This document shows positions 13,674-49,346 of a stretch of 64,000 nucleotides of DNA, piece after piece; position 1 is the first letter of the stretch, and the number at the start of each line of letters is the position of its first letter. Under the pieces are notes generated by a model that had not been told where the DNA came from, did not search any database, and saw only the letters and a list, made by a program, of their open reading frames with translations. Source of the DNA: a virus (Duplodnaviria > Caudoviricetes); the IMG/VR virus record IMGVR_UViG_2866048730_000001, positions 32,314-96,313 of that record; one strand, written 5' to 3'. The position numbers and the translations under genes were made by a program.

Positions 13674-14765
13674 CTACAGGGAGACGGCAGCCTCCCGCGT
13701 CACCGTGGTGCTGGAGAACACGGGAGTGGGCAGGGGGACATCGTACGGCGGCCGGGCCAGGGCCTCATGAAGCATCGCCAGCACGACATCCGTGTGCGTG
13801 AGCCCGACCATCGCCGCCCCGACCGCGAAGTTGCTGTCACGGGACATGCCCGGCGTGCTGTTGACCTCCAGCACGTACGCGTCGCCTTCCTCGGTGACGA
13901 TGAAGTCGATGCGGGCCGAGCCGCGTAGTCCGATCCCATCCCACAGCGTCCGGGCATCCCTGGCGATCCGGTTCATCGCTACGGGCTCCAGCTCGGCGCT
14001 TCGGACGGTGACGGCGCCCTTCGAGTCCACGTCGAGCTTGGTGTCGGCGTCGTAGAACTCGGCATCGGTCGCCTCGGTGGTCAGCGGCGGGAAGACGATC
14101 ACCGAGCCGCCCGGAAGCTCCAGCATTCCCACGGTCACGGGGGTACCGACGATGTAGTCCTCGACGAGCACCTCGTCACCGCTTTCGCCAGCGGCCTCCG
14201 ATAGGGCGCGGGGCAGGTTGGCCGCGTCGCGGACGAGGCTCATGCCCACGCTGGACCCGCCGAAGGGCGGCTTCACCATGACGTCCCGGGTGCCCCAGTT
14301 CACCGGCCCGCCGGACCAGACGCGCCAACCGGGCGTCGGGACGCCGAGGGTCAGCATGACCCGCTTGCAGAGGATCTTGTCAGCGGCCACCGCGGATGCC
14401 TGTACCCCGCTGCCGCAGTAGGGCACGCGAAGGTAGTCGAGCAGGCCCTGAAGACGACCGTCCTCACCGTAGGGGCCGTGCAGGTTCGAGAGGGCCACGT
14501 CGTACGAGACCAGCTCCCTGATGAAGTCGGGCTGGGTGGGGTCCAGCACGTTCCACCGCGCGCCGAGCTCTTCGAGGGCCTCGCCCAGCGCGGTCACGGA
14601 TCGCTGCTCGACTGGGCACTCGGAGTGGTAGAGCCTGTCTTCGGCGGACACCGGTCCGTAAATGAGGGCGACGCCGAGGCCCTGCCGGCCTCGCCCCCAC
14701 TCGCGGAGTTTCTCGGCGGCGTTCTGCGCCGCTTGCTTCGAGGTCGAGTCGAGAAAGACGGTCAT
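13674..14765 (-). CDS. ddl: D-Ala-D-Ala ligase-like ATP-grasp protein
   Basis: LHGPYGEDGRLQG, KPPFGGSSVG, ARIDF, LEVNSTPG. Confidence 0.9.
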   Translation of the reverse strand: MTVFLDSTSKQAAQNAAEKLREWGRGRQGLGVALIYGPVSAEDRLYHSECPVEQRSVTALGEALEELGARWNVLDPTQPDFIRELVSYDVALSNLHGPYGEDGRLQGLLDYLRVPYCGSGVQASAVAADKILCKRVMLTLGVPTPGWRVWSGGPVNWGTRDVMVKPPFGGSSVGMSLVRDAANLPRALSEAAGESGDEVLVEDYIVGTPVTVGMLELPGGSVIVFPPLTTEATDAEFYDADTKLDVDSKGAVTVRSAELEPVAMNRIARDARTLWDGIGLRGSARIDFIVTEEGDAYVLEVNSTPGMSRDSNFAVGAAMVGLTHTDVVLAMLHEALARPPYDVPLPTPVFSSTTVTREAAVSL

Positions 14766-15562
14766 GCGTATACCCCTTCGAAGGTCTGGGTGACCGGTCC
14801 GCCAACCCAGGCGGCCCGTTCCGGGCGGTCGTGGTGCGGGCGGACGGTGAGCGGTTCACCGGCCCGGTTGTGAACGGTGACCTCGCGCTTGGCGACGAGG
14901 CCGCGCATGGTGGCGACGACAACGGCTGCGACGGCCCCGCTGCCGCAGGAGAGCGTCTCGGCTTCGACACCGCGTTCGTAGGTGCGGATCTTGAGTGCCT
15001 GGCGGCCGAGGCGCTGGACGAAGTTGACGTTCGTGCCGATCGGCGCCACGTTCTTGTGGTGCCGAACGACTCGGCCGACCACTTCCGCGTGGATGGCGTC
15101 CACGTCGTCCACGACGGCGACGACGTGTTCCGTGCCGGTGTGCGCGCTGTCGAACCACGTTGGCCTGCCGTTGATGATCGTCTGTAAGACGCGGGGCTCG
15201 ATGGCGCCCACTTCGGCTGTGACCCATACGGAGTTGGTGTCGACGGTTGCCTCGTGCAGGACACCTGCCATGCGAAGCTGCATCGTCCGGAAGCCCTGAT
15301 CGCACTGGGCTGCCCACGCCGCACAGCGCAGCGCGTTGCCGCACATCGTGGCGACCGAGCCGTCCGCGTTGAAGCAGTCGACTTCGAGAACGGTCGGCTC
15401 ATCGCTGACCCGGCTGCTGATGACAAGGCCGTCCGCACCGATGCCAGTACGTCTGGCGCAGAGGCGTTCGGCCTCCTTCGGCCACTCCCTTTTGTCGGCC
15501 GGGCCGAGGTCGGTAAGCAGGACGAAGTCGTTGCCGGCCCCGTGAATCTTGCGGAAGCGCAT
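14762..15562 (-). CDS. dapF: Diaminopimelate epimerase
   Basis: HGAGNDF, GADG, NADGS..MCGN, ERG..ETLSCGSG; both catalytic Cys present. Confidence 0.92.
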   Translation of the reverse strand: MRFRKIHGAGNDFVLLTDLGPADKREWPKEAERLCARRTGIGADGLVISSRVSDEPTVLEVDCFNADGSVATMCGNALRCAAWAAQCDQGFRTMQLRMAGVLHEATVDTNSVWVTAEVGAIEPRVLQTIINGRPTWFDSAHTGTEHVVAVVDDVDAIHAEVVGRVVRHHKNVAPIGTNVNFVQRLGRQALKIRTYERGVEAETLSCGSGAVAAVVVATMRGLVAKREVTVHNRAGEPLTVRPHHDRPERAAWVGGPVTQTFEGVYA

Positions 15563-15957: not shown

Positions 15958-16496
15958 CAGGTTCCGATCAGGAGGCTCTCCAGACGGCCGCGGAGCGGCG
16001 GCATGCTGACTTCGGACAGCGGCACCCAGGCCGCCGCGCCCGCTTCCAGCACCGACGAGCGCACGGCGCTTGCGTGTGCCCGGAAGAGGTAACGAATGCC
16101 GACCCGGAGGCGGGGGCCATACGCGTGCTGACTCGCGGGCGTCACGTCGACCAGGAAGGGGCCTTCGTTTCCGGGTTGCGTCCACACGTCCCGGATGCCG
16201 ACCTCCTCGACCAGCAGGCGGAGGGCCGCCTCGCTGAGTGAGTCGTCCTGATCCTCCGGCTCGGCCTCCGCGAGGGCGTAGCCGCCCTGGTGCCGCAGGC
16301 ACAGGACGCGGTCCCGCTCGTCGACGACGACGGCCGCCGTCATCACGAGCGGACAGCGCTGGTCGTGCGTGCAGGCTTGGCGCCGCGAGTGGTCGAGGGC
16401 GGCGTCGTACACCGGCATCAACGCCATCTGGTCGCCGGGGTGTTCGTGGAGATAGTGGGAGAGCTCCCGGATGATCTGGTCTTCCTTGACGCTCAT
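15957..16496 (-). CDS. NUDIX-fold protein with degenerate Nudix box
   Basis: TAAVVVDERDRVL...SLSEAALRLLVEEVGI. Confidence 0.75.
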   Translation of the reverse strand: MSVKEDQIIRELSHYLHEHPGDQMALMPVYDAALDHSRRQACTHDQRCPLVMTAAVVVDERDRVLCLRHQGGYALAEAEPEDQDDSLSEAALRLLVEEVGIRDVWTQPGNEGPFLVDVTPASQHAYGPRLRVGIRYLFRAHASAVRSSVLEAGAAAWVPLSEVSMPPLRGRLESLLIGT

Positions 16497-16876
16497 GGCG
16501 CGCCCAGCCCGTTGCGCTCGGTGTAGACCCAGAGCAGCCGCCGCGTGAGCGTAGCGACGTCCCGGGCGTAGAGCCACGCCCCGAAGGTCGGCGTCTCTGC
16601 GGTCGGGCGCTCCTTGGAGTCGATCAGGGTAAGACCCTTGCGGACGAGCTGCTGAACCTCGGCGTCCTCGTCCGCCCCCAGGTCCTGGTCGAGCAGGAGG
16701 TTCAGGTGTTGGACGACTGCCGGCGTGACCTCGTCGATGTCCTCGCGGGTCGTGGACCCCATCCGCATCGCGAGGATCGAATCCGTGCGTAAGGAAATTC
16801 CTTCGGTGTCGACGGGGGGATTCTCGGCCGATTCCTCGGCCGCCCCCAACGCCTTGCCGGTACTTGCCAAAGCCAT
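16493..16876 (-). CDS. DUF6415-like protein
   Basis: Size, helical pattern and position downstream of an XRE/DUF5753 module. Confidence 0.5.
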   Translation of the reverse strand: MALASTGKALGAAEESAENPPVDTEGISLRTDSILAMRMGSTTREDIDEVTPAVVQHLNLLLDQDLGADEDAEVQQLVRKGLTLIDSKERPTAETPTFGAWLYARDVATLTRRLLWVYTERNGLGAP

Positions 16877-32068: not shown

Positions 32069-34240
32069 TCAGAGGGCCGGACCCACGTCCTCGATCCACA
32101 ACTCCGACCCGGCTCCGGTGAGGTAGCGGACCTGCCCGTAGGTGGCCGCCGCGCGTCGGGCGTTCAAGAAGACACCGATGGTGGTTAGGCCGGCCGGTGC
32201 TCCGTTGAGGTGGAAGGTGGCGGACAGTCCGGAGGAAGAGTCCGAGTCATCGTTGAAGCAGGTGGTCAGCATGTCGCCGAGGGCGGGACTGGACGCGGTG
32301 ACAGAGGTCCCGGAGGCCCAGCGAGCAACGGTGTATGCGGACTGCTTCGCATACCGGGTGCCCGACCCCGAGTCACCCGTGCCGTCCGTGTCGACCGAGC
32401 TGATGCGCAGCCCGAAGCGGTACATGCGGCGGGCTTCGGCCGGGAAAGTCCAGTAGTAGATCAGGGTGGGGGTGTCGCCCACGTAGCCCGAAGCGTTCAG
32501 GGGTGCGAGGGCAATCAGGCCGCGCGCGGTGTTGTCGCGAAAGGCGGTCTGTCGCCAGGGTGACCAGCCGGACGAGGGGGAGCCGCCGCGGACCCACTCC
32601 TCATGCGGTTCGGCGCCGCCGTGGGTTCGGGACCAGCGCTGCGTGGTGTAACCGGTAGTCGTGCCGGTGGTCCATACGTAGCCGCTCATCGGAGCGAAGC
32701 TCCAGCCCCCGGCCTTCGATGCGGCCGAGTCGAGGTACAGGCGCGAGTCCTCGTACGGGTAGGCGGTCGGGTCGGTGGCCTGGTTGATGGTGTCGGCCGA
32801 GAGGATCTGCTTGTACGTGATCATGCGCCAGGGACCCCAGCCGGTTCTGGCGTTGCCACCCCGCACCCACTCCTCGTGCGGGGTCGTGGCGGCGTGGACG
32901 CGACTCCACGTCTGAGAGGCGTCGCCCCACGGCTCTTTGCGCGTGGTGACGTGCCCGTACTTCCCTCCGAAGTCCCAGCCACCTGCCGTGGCCTGCTCGG
33001 CGGACAGGATCATGATGCTCGCGCCGTCGGGATAGGCGGTGGGCGGGCTGGCCTGCGTGAAGGACTCTGGCCACACCTCCCTGGGGCCGGGCGGAGACGC
33101 CTCGGCCGTCCGTTCCAGGGCGGAGACGCGTGACTGCGTGGTAGCCGCCTGCGCGGTGGCTGCCGCGTTCGGGTCGAACGGGCTGGGATCGCCGAGCAGA
33201 GTGCCGACGTGGAAGCCGTCTTCCCCGGCCTTGATGACCAGGCCCGTAACGGGCGCGGTCAGCTCCTGGCCCCCGGCGACGATCGTGACGCGGTCGCCGA
33301 GTCGCCAGTCGACGCCGAACTCCATAGGGGAGTCTTCAACGGGAACGGCTTGTACGGCGGTTGCAGTCTTGCCCGCCTCGGCCAAGACCTCGTTGCCAGC
33401 CTGAGTGAGCTCCTTCTCGTCGTCCGTGTTGCGCTGGTCGACGAACCTCTCGATGCGGCGTCCCCAGTCCGTCTCGGCGCTGATGGACGTGGTGTTGTCG
33501 ACAGGGATGAGCGTCCGGTCTTCCTGTTCGCCCTGGCCCGCGACGATGACCCGGGTGGCACCGGGCGTCGACACCGAGACGCGCTGTCCGGCGAGCGTGC
33601 CGGCCAGGACGTCGAGGCGTACCTCCCGCGTACGGTCGGCGACCGCGTACGTCTCGAACACGAGCTGACTGGCACGCTGGACGATGCGGAAGCCGAGCCC
33701 TGCCACGCTCGCGATCTCGGTGAGCAGCTCGCCCAACGTGGGGAATCTCGCGCTCTTCTTGACCATCGGGCCCCGGCCCGGGTTCGGCCCCATCACCAGG
33801 TTTCCCCGACGCCGGGCGGCCGGGGCAGCCGGACCACAGTTGGCGTTGACGTAGCCGTGCATCACGGTCTCGGCCGCCCCACTGCGCTCGTCGTGCCCGG
33901 TTGCCTGCTTGCCCACATCGGGATTGGTGGGCTCGGGCCAGGCGAGCATGTCGGACAGGATCACCGTGTCGGATACGCCCTCGAACGCGATGCTGCCGCG
34001 CCGGTCCTCGGGGGTGGCCGCGTACTCGGAGGAGACGACGGGGCCGGACATGAGAACGTCGTCGTGCCCGGTGATGATCAGACCCGAACCGGGAGTGCGC
34101 AGGGTATCCGCGAGAGGGTGCTCCGATGCCAGGGTCAGCTTCCAGGTGCCAACGTTGTTGAACGTGTCGGTCACTTCGAGCGCCAGGTCTTCGGGACGTA
34201 TCAGGCCGAGTCGGGTGAGGTTCTTGTCGCGGACCTCCAC
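32069..34240 (-). CDS. Minor tail protein (Gp37-like) with two C-terminal repeats
   Basis: Follows distal tail gene; duplicated HEEWVRGG...GWxPWR unit. Confidence 0.85.
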   Translation of the reverse strand: MEVRDKNLTRLGLIRPEDLALEVTDTFNNVGTWKLTLASEHPLADTLRTPGSGLIITGHDDVLMSGPVVSSEYAATPEDRRGSIAFEGVSDTVILSDMLAWPEPTNPDVGKQATGHDERSGAAETVMHGYVNANCGPAAPAARRRGNLVMGPNPGRGPMVKKSARFPTLGELLTEIASVAGLGFRIVQRASQLVFETYAVADRTREVRLDVLAGTLAGQRVSVSTPGATRVIVAGQGEQEDRTLIPVDNTTSISAETDWGRRIERFVDQRNTDDEKELTQAGNEVLAEAGKTATAVQAVPVEDSPMEFGVDWRLGDRVTIVAGGQELTAPVTGLVIKAGEDGFHVGTLLGDPSPFDPNAAATAQAATTQSRVSALERTAEASPPGPREVWPESFTQASPPTAYPDGASIMILSAEQATAGGWDFGGKYGHVTTRKEPWGDASQTWSRVHAATTPHEEWVRGGNARTGWGPWRMITYKQILSADTINQATDPTAYPYEDSRLYLDSAASKAGGWSFAPMSGYVWTTGTTTGYTTQRWSRTHGGAEPHEEWVRGGSPSSGWSPWRQTAFRDNTARGLIALAPLNASGYVGDTPTLIYYWTFPAEARRMYRFGLRISSVDTDGTGDSGSGTRYAKQSAYTVARWASGTSVTASSPALGDMLTTCFNDDSDSSSGLSATFHLNGAPAGLTTIGVFLNARRAAATYGQVRYLTGAGSELWIEDVGPAL

Positions 34241-44240: not shown

Positions 44241-45365
44241 TCACGCCTCCTGGGTCGTGTTCGTGGTCTGCCGCGCCTCCTGGGCTGCGGCTCGTTGCTT
44301 CTGGCGGATGAACCGGCGCCAGACGCTGATCGCGTCCTTGCCGGTGTGGCCCCTCGTGACCTTTGGCCACAGAGCCTCGTACTGCCGCGACAGCGCGGTC
44401 AACTCGCTCGACTGGTACTGATCCCGGTTCCAGACCGGCATCGCGTAGCAGTGGCAGTTGTCGTGATACTTGTCGCCGTCTGCAAAGGTGGCGGCCGACT
44501 CGCTCTTGTAGACCGGGCCTCGGCTGATGAGCATGGCGCACCATCCGCACGGGGTGCCGGTACGCGACAGCCGGATGTACCCGAGGGTTCGCCGGTCACG
44601 GCGCATGTGCGTCCAGTTCGAGGACCGGGCGCCGTTCATCGCCATCCGTGAGGCCGCGGCTGCCTGCCGGGCTCCTGCTTGCCGGTGTGCTTCCGCGCGA
44701 GCGGCATCGGCGGCCTTAGCTGACTGCTGGTCGTCGACCTCGGCGAGTCGCCTGTTCAGGTTCTGCGTGCCGAGGGCATCGAGCACCGTGCGGAGCTCCA
44801 ATTCGGCCGCGCGCTCGATGCGCTCCTCTTCTTCCCGGAGCCCCTCCAGCTCCTCGACGAGGATCTTCTCCCAGTCGTCGTCACCGTCGTCGAGCTCCTG
44901 GTGCTCGTCCTTCTCCGTGGCCGCCGGGACGCCCTCCTCCACAGGGTGTGGATCTTTCCCGCGTGGTTGCGAGGCTTCCCCGGACTTGCCGGTCGCGCCC
45001 TCGTTCGCACGCGGGGTGGAGGGGCTGGAGGTGCCGGCCAGCACAGCGAACTCGCGGCGCAGATCGCCGAGCGTGACGTGCTCCGGTTCCGGGTGGTACG
45101 GGTCGGCGACCGTCGTACCGGTCTGAAGGGCGCGGGCGAGCCGAAAGTAGGCGCGGGCCAGATCCCGCGCTTGGCGCCTGCGGCCCATGACCAGAGAGAT
45201 CGCCCGCCGCAGCCAGCCGCCTGCGGTGGCGGCCCGCAGATCGGCCGGCACGTCCGCCCAGAGGGTCAGCGCCTCGGCCGTGGTCTGCACGCCGATCTGC
45301 GTCAGGGCTACGTGGAAGGCCGCCGCCACCTCGTCCGTCTCGGCCTGCCTGGCGGGGCGCGTCAC
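44241..45365 (-). CDS. Capsid maturation/MuF-like protein
   Basis: CGWCAMLISRGPVY, YHDNCHC. Confidence 0.8.
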   Translation of the reverse strand: MTRPARQAETDEVAAAFHVALTQIGVQTTAEALTLWADVPADLRAATAGGWLRRAISLVMGRRRQARDLARAYFRLARALQTGTTVADPYHPEPEHVTLGDLRREFAVLAGTSSPSTPRANEGATGKSGEASQPRGKDPHPVEEGVPAATEKDEHQELDDGDDDWEKILVEELEGLREEEERIERAAELELRTVLDALGTQNLNRRLAEVDDQQSAKAADAARAEAHRQAGARQAAAASRMAMNGARSSNWTHMRRDRRTLGYIRLSRTGTPCGWCAMLISRGPVYKSESAATFADGDKYHDNCHCYAMPVWNRDQYQSSELTALSRQYEALWPKVTRGHTGKDAISVWRRFIRQKQRAAAQEARQTTNTTQEA

Positions 45366-46789
45366 GCCGCAGCCTTCTCGATGGGCGCCGCGTCCTCGGG
45401 GGTGGCACGGTTGAGGGCACCCGCGAGCTGCCCCACCGAGTCGTCGTCCTCGCGCATCTGCTCCCAGTCCTCCAGCTCGGTTTGCGTGACGCCCGGGACG
45501 CGCCGCCACAGGCCGCGTTCGGGGATGCCGAGTTGAGTACGGAGCTTGCCGAGGGCGTCTGCGGACTGGGCGAGACTGCGCGACTCCATGTCGCGCCAGA
45601 CGACCTCGCCGCGGAAGTCCTCGGCGGAGGATGCGTTGCCGGCCAGTTCGCCCGCGAGTCTGAAGACCCTCTCCCAGGACTCTCCGAAGCCCGTGCGGAC
45701 CTCGGAGATCATCCGGCTGAGGGAGACTTCTGCGGCTTGAAGGGCCTCCGCTGACAGGTTGGCGATCTGTCCCAGGATCGTCTGCGGGGGCACCTGGGCA
45801 AGGGCGCTGAGGTGCCGGATGCTCATTTCGATGCTGTCGATGAAGCCCCCGAGCGGGGTTTCGTCAAGTGAGCCGAACTTGACGTCGGGGTCCTCGGCGA
45901 AGAGGAAGCGGCGGCTGTTGTGGTTGATCCTCACCGGGATCGGGTTGCCCTGGGCGTCGAGCACCGGCTCGCCCGTTTCCGGGTCGCGCTGGACCGGCGG
46001 GGCCATGCCCGTGACCGTCCGTACCTTCGTGCTGCCGTAGGACTGGGCGAGCAAGAGGTCGAACACCGTCTGGTTGATGCGGTCCTGGACACAGATCATC
46101 GGCTCGATGACGCCGAGGGTTCTTCCCTCCAGGTCGACCCAGGCGGCGAAGCGCGTGACCGGGCACTCCGAGGAACCGTGAAGAGTGCCGCCCTGGAGGC
46201 GCACCGACTTCTCATCGCTCAGCGACCGGAAGGTGACCACGTACTCCCGCTTGGCATCCCACAGCCGGGCGGTGCCCGGCTGGTCGCCCTGCGGCCACGT
46301 CGTCACGGTCAATGCCGCATGGGGTGTGTGGTCGTTCGCCGGGTCCTCATAGAGAGCGCTGGTCTTGAGGGCGGAAAGCCCCCTGGTGATTACGTCGCCG
46401 GAGCGGCCTCGCTCCGTCATGGTGAACGCGTGCCCGTACGTCAGCGCGCCCCGGTAGACGGCGGCCTGGCGGCCGTCGAGACGGGACCTCTGCCAGTGCT
46501 CCCACTCGGGAGTCTCTGAGTCAGGCTCGGACGTAGCGGAGGTTCCCGAACCTGGACGATAGCCGTCCACGTAGAGGGCCTGGGCCGGGGTCGAGACAAG
46601 CAGGGGCATCCAGTTCGACACCGCGCGCCGCGCCAGCAGCCTGTACTCGTCATCGGCCTGGGGCGGCATGTAGGGGTCCGAGTGCCGACCGTGAAGGTAG
46701 TCATCGATGCGACGCAGACGGTCGCCGTCTCGATGCAGGATGGCCAGGAGTTCTTGTGCGAGCGCGAGGGGCGAGGCAGCGAAGACCAC
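45362..46789 (-). CDS. Portal protein
   Basis: 475 aa after terminase; NLSAEAL, FGESWE. Confidence 0.9.
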   Translation of the reverse strand: MVFAASPLALAQELLAILHRDGDRLRRIDDYLHGRHSDPYMPPQADDEYRLLARRAVSNWMPLLVSTPAQALYVDGYRPGSGTSATSEPDSETPEWEHWQRSRLDGRQAAVYRGALTYGHAFTMTERGRSGDVITRGLSALKTSALYEDPANDHTPHAALTVTTWPQGDQPGTARLWDAKREYVVTFRSLSDEKSVRLQGGTLHGSSECPVTRFAAWVDLEGRTLGVIEPMICVQDRINQTVFDLLLAQSYGSTKVRTVTGMAPPVQRDPETGEPVLDAQGNPIPVRINHNSRRFLFAEDPDVKFGSLDETPLGGFIDSIEMSIRHLSALAQVPPQTILGQIANLSAEALQAAEVSLSRMISEVRTGFGESWERVFRLAGELAGNASSAEDFRGEVVWRDMESRSLAQSADALGKLRTQLGIPERGLWRRVPGVTQTELEDWEQMREDDDSVGQLAGALNRATPEDAAPIEKAAA

Positions 46790-46823: not shown

Positions 46824-48474
46824 TCAAAGGAAATAGCCCCGCCCGGTACGCGTACGGGTCTTCCGGCCTCGGGCTCGGAGATCGAAAAGGGCTTCGTGGG
46901 CAAGCATCAAAGCCGCGTAGGCGTCGACCTTTCGCGGAGACTCGCGTGATTCCTTGCCAAAGCTCAGGCCGTAATTGTTGGTACGACGTCGCGCATTCAA
47001 AACATGGCGGCGCAACTTTCGGTCGCCGTCGTGGACGATTTTCCGGTCGAGGATTGAACGGAGTAGCCGCTCGTGCGCCATGGTCGACGCCTTCAGGCTG
47101 GTCCTCATGTCCCAGCCGATTGAGTCCTTTCCCGGAGCCTTGACGGCCAGACCCTCGCCGTACGTCGCGGACCACTCAGAGATGTACGACTCCCAGAGAG
47201 CCACGTCCGCGTAGAAGCCCTGCACGCTGAAGGTGGAGAACGCCTCGTGCACTGCGCTGTCCACCCGGTCACGCGGGACTTCCCACTCCTTGCTGGCCGG
47301 GCCGTCCGGCTTCTCCCAAAGGCCCAGCACGCAGGCGAATCCATCGCTGACGCGGAGTGCGCACAAAGCAGTCGAGTCATCGCGGAGGCCGCCGTCGAAG
47401 CCCAACACGATTTCGTCACCGGGCTGGAGGACCTTCGAGTCGTCACGCAGGACGTCCCAGTCGGCTGGGCTGTACACCGCATCTTCGGACGCCACGATCT
47501 GGTTCAGCCACATCCGGCGCGAGCGCGACGGCGCGATGGTCGTGTCCAGGATGGACTGGAGGATCGTCTCGACCCTCAGCCACACCGCGTCACCGCGAAT
47601 CCGCGGCAGGACGATCCGAACTGCCTCGGGAGTCAACGGTGTTGCCGGATGGGCCTCGATGCTGTCGTACATGAAGCCGACGTCCGCAGCGCGGCCTTCG
47701 AGGATCTTCTCGTATGCCTCGCGCATCTTCTCCGCGACGGAATCCTCGCCGGGGAGGTAGGCGTTTGTGATCGCCAGGTAGCGCGAGTCCTTCTTCGTCG
47801 CGTTGCCGTCGATCGTCTCGTACATGCGGTCGCCGTTGTTGCCGGTCACCCAGTGGTGCGTCTCGTTGAGCACCGTGAACGTGACTCGGCCACCCTCAAG
47901 CGCGCGGAACGACGATGTGACCGCTTCGAGCCTCTGCCGGCCACCATTCGCGCGGATCAACTCGGCCCCGGCCTTGATGCCGTACGTCTCGATGAGCTTG
48001 TCCGACATCAGCGACGGCATCAGTGTCATCGTGTTGCGCGTCTGGTCGCGACTGACGGCCGCGATCTGGACCCAAGCCTGGGGGTGCGGAACGCCGACCG
48101 GCTGACCGTCCTTACCCCAGTGCGAGAAGCGGGAGGGGCCGACGAACTCGACCAGGGAAATGACCGCGAGGAGCGGGTCCTTGCCCTAAGCCCCAGCCCT
48201 TCAGGCGTTGGAGGACTCCCTTGCGGTGGATGAAGCGGCCGTTCTCATCGACCGCGTACCACCACAGAACGAAGCGGAGCTGCTCGCGCGTGAAGCGCCA
48301 GGGACCACTGTCCTCGGCTCTGAGGAACTCGGCGCACCAACCGGCGATCTGCCAACCGAGCGTGCGCTCGGGGAGCTTCCAGGAGCCGTCCGGCTCCTTC
48401 GTCCATGTTGGGCCCAGGAACGACGGTTCAAGGGCCTCGATCTCTACTGCTGTGAGGGCTGGAATGGGACTCAC
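46824..48474 (-). CDS. terL: Terminase large subunit, two frames joined by a predicted 7-nt translational bypass
   Basis: Removing 48183-48189 restores QRLKGWGKDP and one continuous ORF with NETHHW and GFDGG..DDSTAL. Confidence 0.88.
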
Positions 48475-48513
48475 CTCCTCCCCGAAGTCGGGCCGCCGGG
48501 AGAGCGGCTCACC

Positions 48514-48942
48514 TCACTCGGCGAGCCCCAGTTCCTTCCGGTAGTCGGCGATGGCGAGCACAGCCGCGGACTGCTCCTCGGGCTCAGGCTCATGCAGCTC
48601 GATACGCACGCGGCGGCGGTCGCCCTCGGTGACGAGGAGGCGCTCGAAGGCGGAGTAGATCGTCTGAAGCATCTGGCCGCTTCGCTTGCCGGCCTTCTTG
48701 TAATACGACAGGTCTTCGCACAGTGAGTAGGCGAAGGCCCAGTCGCTGTTCTGGTAGAAGTCCGACTGGCCCGAGGACTTCAGGGCGTCCCAGAGGCGCT
48801 TGGCGATGGGGTGCCAGTTCCGGTCGGCATTCGGGACTTTCACGTCGCGCATGAGGCCCTTGGTCACGGCCTGGACGTCGGCTCCCTTTCGGGAGCGTGG
48901 GCGGGCGAGATCCGCCTCGCGGTTTGGTACGGGGCCCGGGAT
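48514..48942 (-). CDS. Terminase small subunit-like protein
   Basis: PGPVP...WHPIAKRLW...SDWA...TEGDRRR; first canonical start 48867, probable ATC start 48942. Confidence 0.7.
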   Translation of the reverse strand: MPGPVPNREADLARPRSRKGADVQAVTKGLMRDVKVPNADRNWHPIAKRLWDALKSSGQSDFYQNSDWAFAYSLCEDLSYYKKAGKRSGQMLQTIYSAFERLLVTEGDRRRVRIELHEPEPEEQSAAVLAIADYRKELGLAE

Positions 48943-49034: not shown

Positions 49035-49346
49035 TCAAAGCAGGCCCGGGTGTCTTTCTGTCCGGCGGAACCTGCGTCTGGCATGTCGGCGCGCGGCAGC
49101 TTGAGCCGCAGCCCCTTCACGCGAGCTCTTGACCCGGTGATGCCACCCGCAAAGGGATGTCAGGTTGGCCTCTCGATGGTCGTCACCGGGTTGTATGTGG
49201 TCGACATCCGTTGCGAGCTCGGAACATCGCACGCCGTACTGATCTCTGGCTGTGCACCTATGTCCGTCGCGCCGGAGGATGCGAATCCTGATCTGGGGCC
49301 AATTCGCTGGAAGTCGGGCCCTTCGGTCTGAGGTAGACCAAGCCAT
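49035..49346 (-). CDS. HNH endonuclease
   Basis: RDGHRC, VDHI, NLTSLCGWHH..KS. Confidence 0.88.
   Translation of the reverse strand: MAWSTSDRRARLPANWPQIRIRILRRDGHRCTARDQYGVRCSELATDVDHIQPGDDHREANLTSLCGWHHRVKSSREGAAAQAAARRHARRRFRRTERHPGLL

Follow-up and report, generated by a model that had tools for sequence, protein, structure and literature searches.

The gene for the large terminase subunit (TerL) of an R4-like (Arquatrovirinae-like) prophage is interrupted by a 7-nt coding gap led by the rare codon TTA, and the ribosome very probably crosses this gap by programmed short-range translational bypass, that is, by a ribosome hop. Translational bypassing is among the rarest departures from normal decoding. 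The gap lies on the minus strand of the 64,000-nt stretch of DNA that we analyzed (hereafter the window), which spans positions 32,314 to 96,313 of the IMG/VR record IMGVR_UViG_2866048730_000001. Until now, the evidence for it in Streptomyces terminases came from three genes (3 of the 100 screened; Antonov et al. 2023, RNA Biol, PMC10732093) and from experiments with low yields. To these, the window locus contributes a clean and read-verified case from a complete genome, and its relatives provide a natural mutational series at a single codon that, on sequence evidence alone, favors hopping over +1 frameshifting.

The coding gap in the terminase gene

Read on the minus strand, the interrupted region is AAG (48201-48199) GGC TGG GGC (48192-48190) TTA (48189-48187) G (48186) GGC (48185-48183) AAG (48182-48180) GAC. 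The first part of the TerL gene (48190..48474, minus strand), the equivalent of phiHau3 g6, starts with GTG at 48474 and runs for 95 codons to the take-off codon, ending in ...RLKGWG. The second part (46824..48182, minus strand), equivalent to phiHau3 g7 plus g8, extends from AAG at 48182 over 452 codons plus the stop codon at 46826-46824. Between them lies the gap TTAGGGC (48183..48189, minus strand), whose TTA is in frame with the GTG at 48474 and heads the insert. The GGC take-off codon for glycine (48190..48192, minus strand) would occupy the P site as UUA arrives in the A site, and the frame entered at the landing GGC is open from 48185 with no stop until 46824. If the TTA is instead decoded as leucine, the upstream ORF (48474..48112) reaches a zero-frame TAA (48112..48114, minus strand) 25 codons past take-off and encodes 120 amino acids, 95 native and 25 out-of-frame. 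A preliminary description of this DNA had placed the take-off GGC, the TTA, the single G and the landing GGC at the same positions and had predicted the stop at 48112 upon decoding of TTA; both agree with our reading. It had also proposed that hopping restores KGWGKD exactly, for which the three sequence elements are seen and the comparative data presented below are strongly supportive.

In an alignment with the uninterrupted TerL gene of phiScoe54, the window gene has exactly 7 nt extra. The same 7 nt are absent from 22 other gapless sites (23 gapless sites listed in all), and the insert falls inside the KGWGKD motif. The identity of the gene is evidenced by both parts matching the PHROG terminase large subunit family phrog_9 (E 2.5e-17 for part 1 and 5.8e-60 for part 2) and by the intact portal ORF directly downstream (45362..46789, minus strand; phrog_104, E 3e-119). 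The N-terminus of part 1 closely resembles the phiHau3 g6 sequence printed in PMC10732093. No Pfam family was found for either TerL part or for the phiScoe54 TerL, and searches of PDB sequences, run with a single protein and with a profile of 15 sequences, returned chance matches only. A structural model of a gapless relative matches HK97 TerL (6z6d, E 2e-9) and also T4 gp17 and Sf6 gp2; this AlphaFold model is of poor quality (pLDDT 57, and under 50 at the motif) and served only for recognizing the TerL fold, not for placing the P-loop. Across 15 gapless TerL proteins with identities as low as 44%, KGWGKDP does not vary, nor does it differ in sequence or length at any of the 46 listed sites. 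In the model a strand (87-89) precedes and a helix (95-106) follows the G-x-G-K-D pattern, with pLDDT below 50 there, and KGWGKD is the putative Walker A motif (P-loop) of the TerL ATPase.

Next to TerL on its upstream side, where relatives have the small terminase subunit, lies a gene (48514..48867, minus strand) that matches phrog_226 (labelled minor tail protein, E 4e-34). The phiScoe54 gene at this position is annotated as terminase small subunit, and from its position the window gene probably has the same function. The left end of the phage genome carries an HNH endonuclease gene (49035..49346, minus strand; phrog_333, E 3.1e-36). An HNH gene is found upstream of TerL in the gapless phiScoe54 and the gap-bearing GreenWeasel alike and is thus not gap-specific.

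In the host, TTA accounts for 96 of 1,205,843 codons (0.08 per 1000, counted in long high-GC3 ORFs), and tRNA-Leu(UAA) of the bldA type is encoded by one gene (C1 2809879-2809962). No tRNA gene was found in the prophage region. Three host genes encode tRNA-Gly(GCC), which reads GGC and GGU, so that the identical take-off and landing codons (GGC/GGC) have a common tRNA. The only in-frame TTA in the arm of virion genes, from 48474 to 29606, is the one in the gap, exactly at the frame break. Together with the rarity of TTA in the host, this makes chance a poor explanation. Two further genes of the window, both at the cargo/lysogeny end of the prophage, contain an in-frame TTA without a frame break (14762-15562, minus strand, codon 126; 16493-16876, minus strand, codon 29) and are possibly ordinary bldA-dependent genes.

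The local RNA fold in the 141 nt around the gap is not more stable than that of shuffled sequences (z = +0.27), hence the stem-loop stimulator proposed in the literature is unsupported at the window locus. A G-rich Shine-Dalgarno-like string (AAGGGCUGGGG) precedes the gap, but since the KGWG codons impose it on gapless genes as well, it is uninformative either way. The second published bypass site of this gene family, described below, is likewise preceded by a G-rich string, here of Glu-Gly codons, and such strings may help explain in part why these two sites are used.

Reality of the insert and state of the gene

The chance that the 7 nt are a spurious insertion from sequencing or assembly is negligible. 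Logan contigs of two separate runs (2018, 330x; 2025, 193x), either of which may be the source of the assembly, have 0 differences over 47973-48700, insert included. A third contig, from a run of another organism (run X4; 55.7 kb, ~93% identical), keeps the 7 nt amid 72 substitutions over 974 nt, its sole indels being two 1-nt deletions upstream of the start codon. Only fragments came from run X3, a sediment metagenome, and none of them spans the gap. Furthermore, 56 other sequences carry a gap at the same codon. A more serious alternative, though still an unlikely one, is that the insert is an inactivating mutation that killed TerL in a defective, non-inducible prophage and that its likeness to a bypass site is inherited and unused. 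The prophage is one of two in tandem, and one related carrier of a TTA gap (L013/L030) is clearly a decayed gene with several further frame breaks, so carriage of a gap alone is no proof of function. The window gene, by contrast, has no other frame break or stop and aligns over residues 5-548 of the phiScoe54 TerL, the portal and the long virion ORFs next to it are intact, and the precise design of the insert, a rare codon with a matched landing codon, counts against such a mutation. The pattern of substitutions also speaks against inactivation. Of 65 substitutions in the run X4 contig, the 40 listed fall mostly in third positions, counted in the g6 frame before the gap is reached and in the g78 frame past it, which implies that the frame under selection switches at the gap. 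Compared with the gap-bearing genes L008, L012, L021, L017 and L019 (dS 0.38-1.3), dN/dS is 0.10-0.22 over the 90 codons before the gap and 0.04-0.14 over the 96 codons after it; values above 1 for the g7 part against L025, L026 and L024 were left out because an indel put the ungapped comparison out of register. The gap string itself is kept in L017 at dS 0.38-0.73 and in the 93%-identical strain. Judged by these comparisons, both TerL halves are under purifying selection, each in its own frame, and the window TerL does not look like a dead gene.

Gaps in related terminase genes

The preliminary description had suggested aligning related terminase genes in search of matched codons around TTA, and such a search yields gaps at the same codon in 18 genomes and 38 IMG/VR contigs. 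The scan of species-representative genomes used a TTA-led insert at the KGWG codon as its pattern. All 18 matches are true TerL sites with TTA-led gaps, found in Streptomyces, Kitasatospora, Lentzea and Salininema, and the gaps measure 7 nt (five strings), 8 nt (TTACCGGC) or 10 nt (TTACCCCGGT). In IMG/VR, 38 of 39 matches are true sites with gaps of 5-12 nt: 21 are TTA-led (5, 7, 8, 10 or 11 nt), 14 are TGA-led (6 to 12 nt) and 3 are TAA-led (9 nt). In total, 29 different gap strings of 5-12 nt, led by TTA, TGA or TAA, occupy the KGWG codon. The string of the window, TTAGGGC, recurs at the loci L017, L018 and L064. Most gaps place a Gly codon (GGN) directly before AAG, with exceptions such as TTAGC and TTATAGC that end in AGC. 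The isolated phages BroPlease and GreenWeasel (Hautrevirus) depend on DNA packaging for their propagation, and both have 10 nt extra at the same place when aligned with phiScoe54.

Gap length depends on the leading codon. None of the 13 TTA-led strings is a multiple of three in length, though the search patterns would have caught such strings, as opposed to 8 of 17 stop-led gaps. The likely reason is that an in-frame insert with a decoded TTA would add residues to an invariant loop. The constrained features of the series are thus the leading slow codon, the Gly landing codon and the restriction of sense-led gaps to lengths other than multiples of three.

A sample of 400 genomes of the window's genus, in which the insert was left unconstrained, contained 21 gapless and 6 gapped P-loop sites. 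Three of the latter are TTA-led, 2 are stop-led (9 nt) and 1 is CCA-led. The two stop-led gaps belong to one Streptomyces genome with two otherwise intact TerL genes (L025, G351:C1:50035-50063, minus strand; L026, G351:C18:24845-24873, plus strand), where GGT TGA CCC GGC and GGC TAA CCC GGT contain 9-nt gaps that keep the frame. The CCA-led case (L027, G090:C107:1142-1168) is a 7-nt gap at the same codon, GGT CCA C GGT, on a contig of 1287 nt, and a zero-frame TAA follows two codons after the gap. One further match of the genus sample (G193) was rejected as a TerL gap, being a chance match with no tblastn match to TerL; two other pattern matches (G306 and G265) were left out as presumed chance.

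In a quick IQ-TREE tree, the window gene falls in a clade with a P-loop gap in 11 of 13 rows; as the gapped rows were gathered by the gap itself, counts of gains and losses are indicative only. The 10-nt string TTACCCCGGT is identical letter by letter in L009/L028, L023, L014, L022, L020, L011, L016, L001 and L002, from Streptomyces, Kitasatospora and Lentzea, whose TerL proteins share just 45-50% identity. Such identity points either to a constrained gap sequence or to gaps passed on through local recombination.

The host genome carries two related prophages in tandem. The TerL of the neighboring prophage (L005/L006) is 83-89% identical to the window TerL and has an intact KGWGKD, yet it contains a 7-nt gap of its own, TCC TTA G TCC (G000:C1:4464385-4464376, minus strand), directly before TFTVLNETHHW and ~4.45 kb before window position 1. 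By its sequence context, this gap occupies the other published bypass site. The window TerL has no gap before TFTVLNETHHW, the g7/g8 site. None of the TerL genes described in PMC10732093 is interrupted only at the second site. The two prophages of this lysogen therefore have gaps at complementary sites ~300 nt apart, and a single crossover between them could give a gap-free or a doubly gapped terminase gene.

Gaps of the same design are found at two other codons before the Walker-B-like LNETHHW, with the take-off and landing pairs TCC..TCC, TCT..TCC and CGA..CGC, each read by one tRNA. The host has tRNAs for the pairs GGC/GGU, UCC/UCU and CGA/CGC. In the genus sample, 3 of the 21 genes without a P-loop gap are interrupted at the second site by a TTA gap of 7 nt, the order being CGA, TTA, one base and CGC. 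The pattern for the second site in IMG/VR was less specific: 8 of 52 resolved sites are true gaps, and the rest are mostly gapless genes that matched via a GGTAAG string. The arginine take-off codon, the third in this gene family, is found as CGA TTA C/T CGC one codon before the serine site in L032, L033 (G147) and L035 (G233), a TerL lineage just ~50% identical to the window TerL.

Hopping, its alternatives and its possible role

Proposals of UUA-led bypass in terminase genes go back to Smith et al. 2013 (J Bacteriol 195:4924), who, as reported in PMC10732093, described two 10-nt UUA-led gaps in the phiHau3 TerL (g6/g7/g8) and one gap in the TerL of the prophage StrepC.1. Antonov and colleagues added a 7-nt gap in a Streptomyces catenulae prophage as the third case; StrepC.1 and the S. 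catenulae prophage each have one 7-nt gap (g6/g78; PMC10732093). For phiHau3, a full-length product was reported in Streptomyces, and in E. coli, with UAA replacing UUA, the junction peptide was detected by mass spectrometry, the efficiency of bypass being low (PMC10732093). The preliminary description was correct in citing the phiHau3 terminase as a published case of bypass. As in phiHau3, StrepC.1 and S. catenulae, the window gap is TTA-led and lies in the same gene family at the same codon after KGWG. It shares its length of 7 nt with StrepC.1 and S. catenulae, and with the phiHau3 class the matched landing codon and a Streptomyces host with rare TTA and bldA. Unlike phiHau3, the window gene has no second gap, the second published site being occupied instead in the separate tandem prophage. 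S. catenulae NRRL B-2342 was recovered in our genome scan (L019), and its gap string differs from that of the window (TTATAGC versus TTAGGGC). Streptomyces sp. C does not appear as a record name among the genome-scan matches. On sequence grounds, the window locus is distinct from the S. catenulae locus; it could in principle be that of StrepC.1, which was compared by its description. The window gap is a further case of the published UUA-led TerL bypass and not a new kind. What is new here is the series of relatives, by whose sequences TerL gaps are commoner and more varied than reported.

In the mechanism that we propose, translation would start at the GTG at 48474 and proceed until peptidyl-tRNA-Gly(GCC) sits on GGC 48192-48190 as the very rare UUA enters the A site. 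Decoding of UUA would be slow because the single bldA tRNA-Leu(UAA) is its sole decoder. The peptidyl-tRNA would then unpair, the mRNA would slide by 7 nt and the tRNA would re-pair with the identical GGC at 48185-48183. Decoding would resume at AAG 48182 and yield a TerL of 547 amino acids with KGWGKD intact. Ribosomes that decode UUA instead would run out of frame to the stop at 48114-48112 and release the 120-aa fragment. Since decoding of UUA gives only this fragment, the fraction of hopping ribosomes would set the amount of terminase. We infer the hop in this host, its efficiency and any dependence on the level of bldA tRNA.

A programmed +1 frameshift at or next to UUA would produce a TerL with two extra residues (KGWG-L-G-KD or similar). 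As the insert has a length of 3n+1, one +1 slip restores the frame, and a hungry A-site codon, which the UUA would provide, is the classical trigger of +1 shifts. Nevertheless, we rate this mechanism as very unlikely. Shifted by +1, the take-off GGC becomes GCU, on which tRNA-Gly(GCC) would re-pair poorly, and the two-residue insert would fall in a motif of constant length (46 sites). Moreover, a +1 shift, unlike a hop, can repair neither the 5-, 8- and 11-nt TTA gaps of the relatives nor their 6-, 9- and 12-nt stop-led gaps. In the case of phiHau3, +1 frameshifting was not formally excluded in Streptomyces, but recoding was not lowered when a +1-frame stop was put into the gap (PMC10732093). 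Taken together, the gap lengths, the codon pairs read by the same tRNA and the GCU mismatch favor peptidyl-tRNA detachment and re-pairing, that is, the hop. It is extremely improbable that the terminase is a split enzyme, assembled into an active form from two separately translated ORFs, even if the pieces of the BroPlease and GreenWeasel genes are annotated as separate genes in databases. The break lies between the G and the K of the G-x-G-K-D loop, there is no start codon between the gap and that lysine, and the earliest ATG of the frame that follows lies at 48029, 51 codons into it. A split would also leave the position of the break and the matched codons without explanation.

The hop proposed at the window locus resembles that of T4 gene 60 in that peptidyl-tRNA-Gly moves from a Gly codon to a matching Gly codon, in that the A-site codon is slow or non-decodable and in that an essential phage gene is affected. 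It differs in the length of the gap, 7 nt as opposed to 50 nt, in the codon after take-off, a rare sense codon as opposed to a stop codon, and in that neither a take-off hairpin nor a nascent-peptide signal is evident. Nor was any connection with a mobile nuclease seen, as the HNH gene near the window TerL is also syntenic in gapless relatives. Short-range tRNA hopping at stop or hungry codons was reportedly described in E. coli by Weiss, Gallant, Lindsley and colleagues (refs 47-52 of PMC10732093). These short hops likewise span a few nucleotides between matched codons and are provoked by an empty A site, and a natural form from IMG/VR, GGT-TGA-GGT (L086), has the same arrangement. Unlike in those low-level, engineered or starved systems, the arrangement in the window is a conserved part of an essential gene. 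Like +1 frameshifting of the prfB type, the window gap involves a slow codon in the A site and, upstream of it, a G-rich Shine-Dalgarno-like sequence. It lacks, however, a slippery P-site codon, and the relatives' gaps of 5, 6, 8, 9, 11 and 12 nt exclude +1 shifting as a common mechanism.

According to the published hypothesis, the hop is favored and packaging allowed when bldA tRNA is scarce, and packaging is shut off later (PMC10732093). The rarity of TTA in the host and its single bldA gene fit the idea of a scarce charged tRNA, with the timing of bldA as a hypothetical element. Gaps led by TGA or TAA cannot sense bldA, which weakens a strictly bldA-specific reading as a general explanation and challenges bldA sensing as the reason for the gaps. 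Judging by these stop-led equivalents, what the design requires is a slow codon in the A site, not UUA in particular. A broader reading, which we put forward tentatively, is that the window gap is one allele of a general, fast-evolving hop element rather than a bldA sensor as such. In such an element the A site would be taken by a slow codon of any kind (UUA, UGA or UAA), followed by a short spacer, C-rich in most cases, and by a landing codon that shares its tRNA with the take-off codon. Elements of this type may be present at three codons in the ATPase motifs of TerL, in between about a fifth and a third of the terminase genes of R4-like prophages. If this is true, they would be selected for limiting TerL synthesis to a small, fixed fraction, or they may persist for another reason, such as the protection of a conserved DNA target, and the UUA-led forms would add sensitivity to growth phase on top. 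The natural series supplies ready-made constructs for asking whether the level of bldA tRNA gates packaging. As to the spacer, the base before the landing codon is mostly C in the relatives and G in the window, where it creates an overlapping GGG triplet at +6 (48186-48184), a near-cognate landing place that would hold ribosomes in an unproductive frame.
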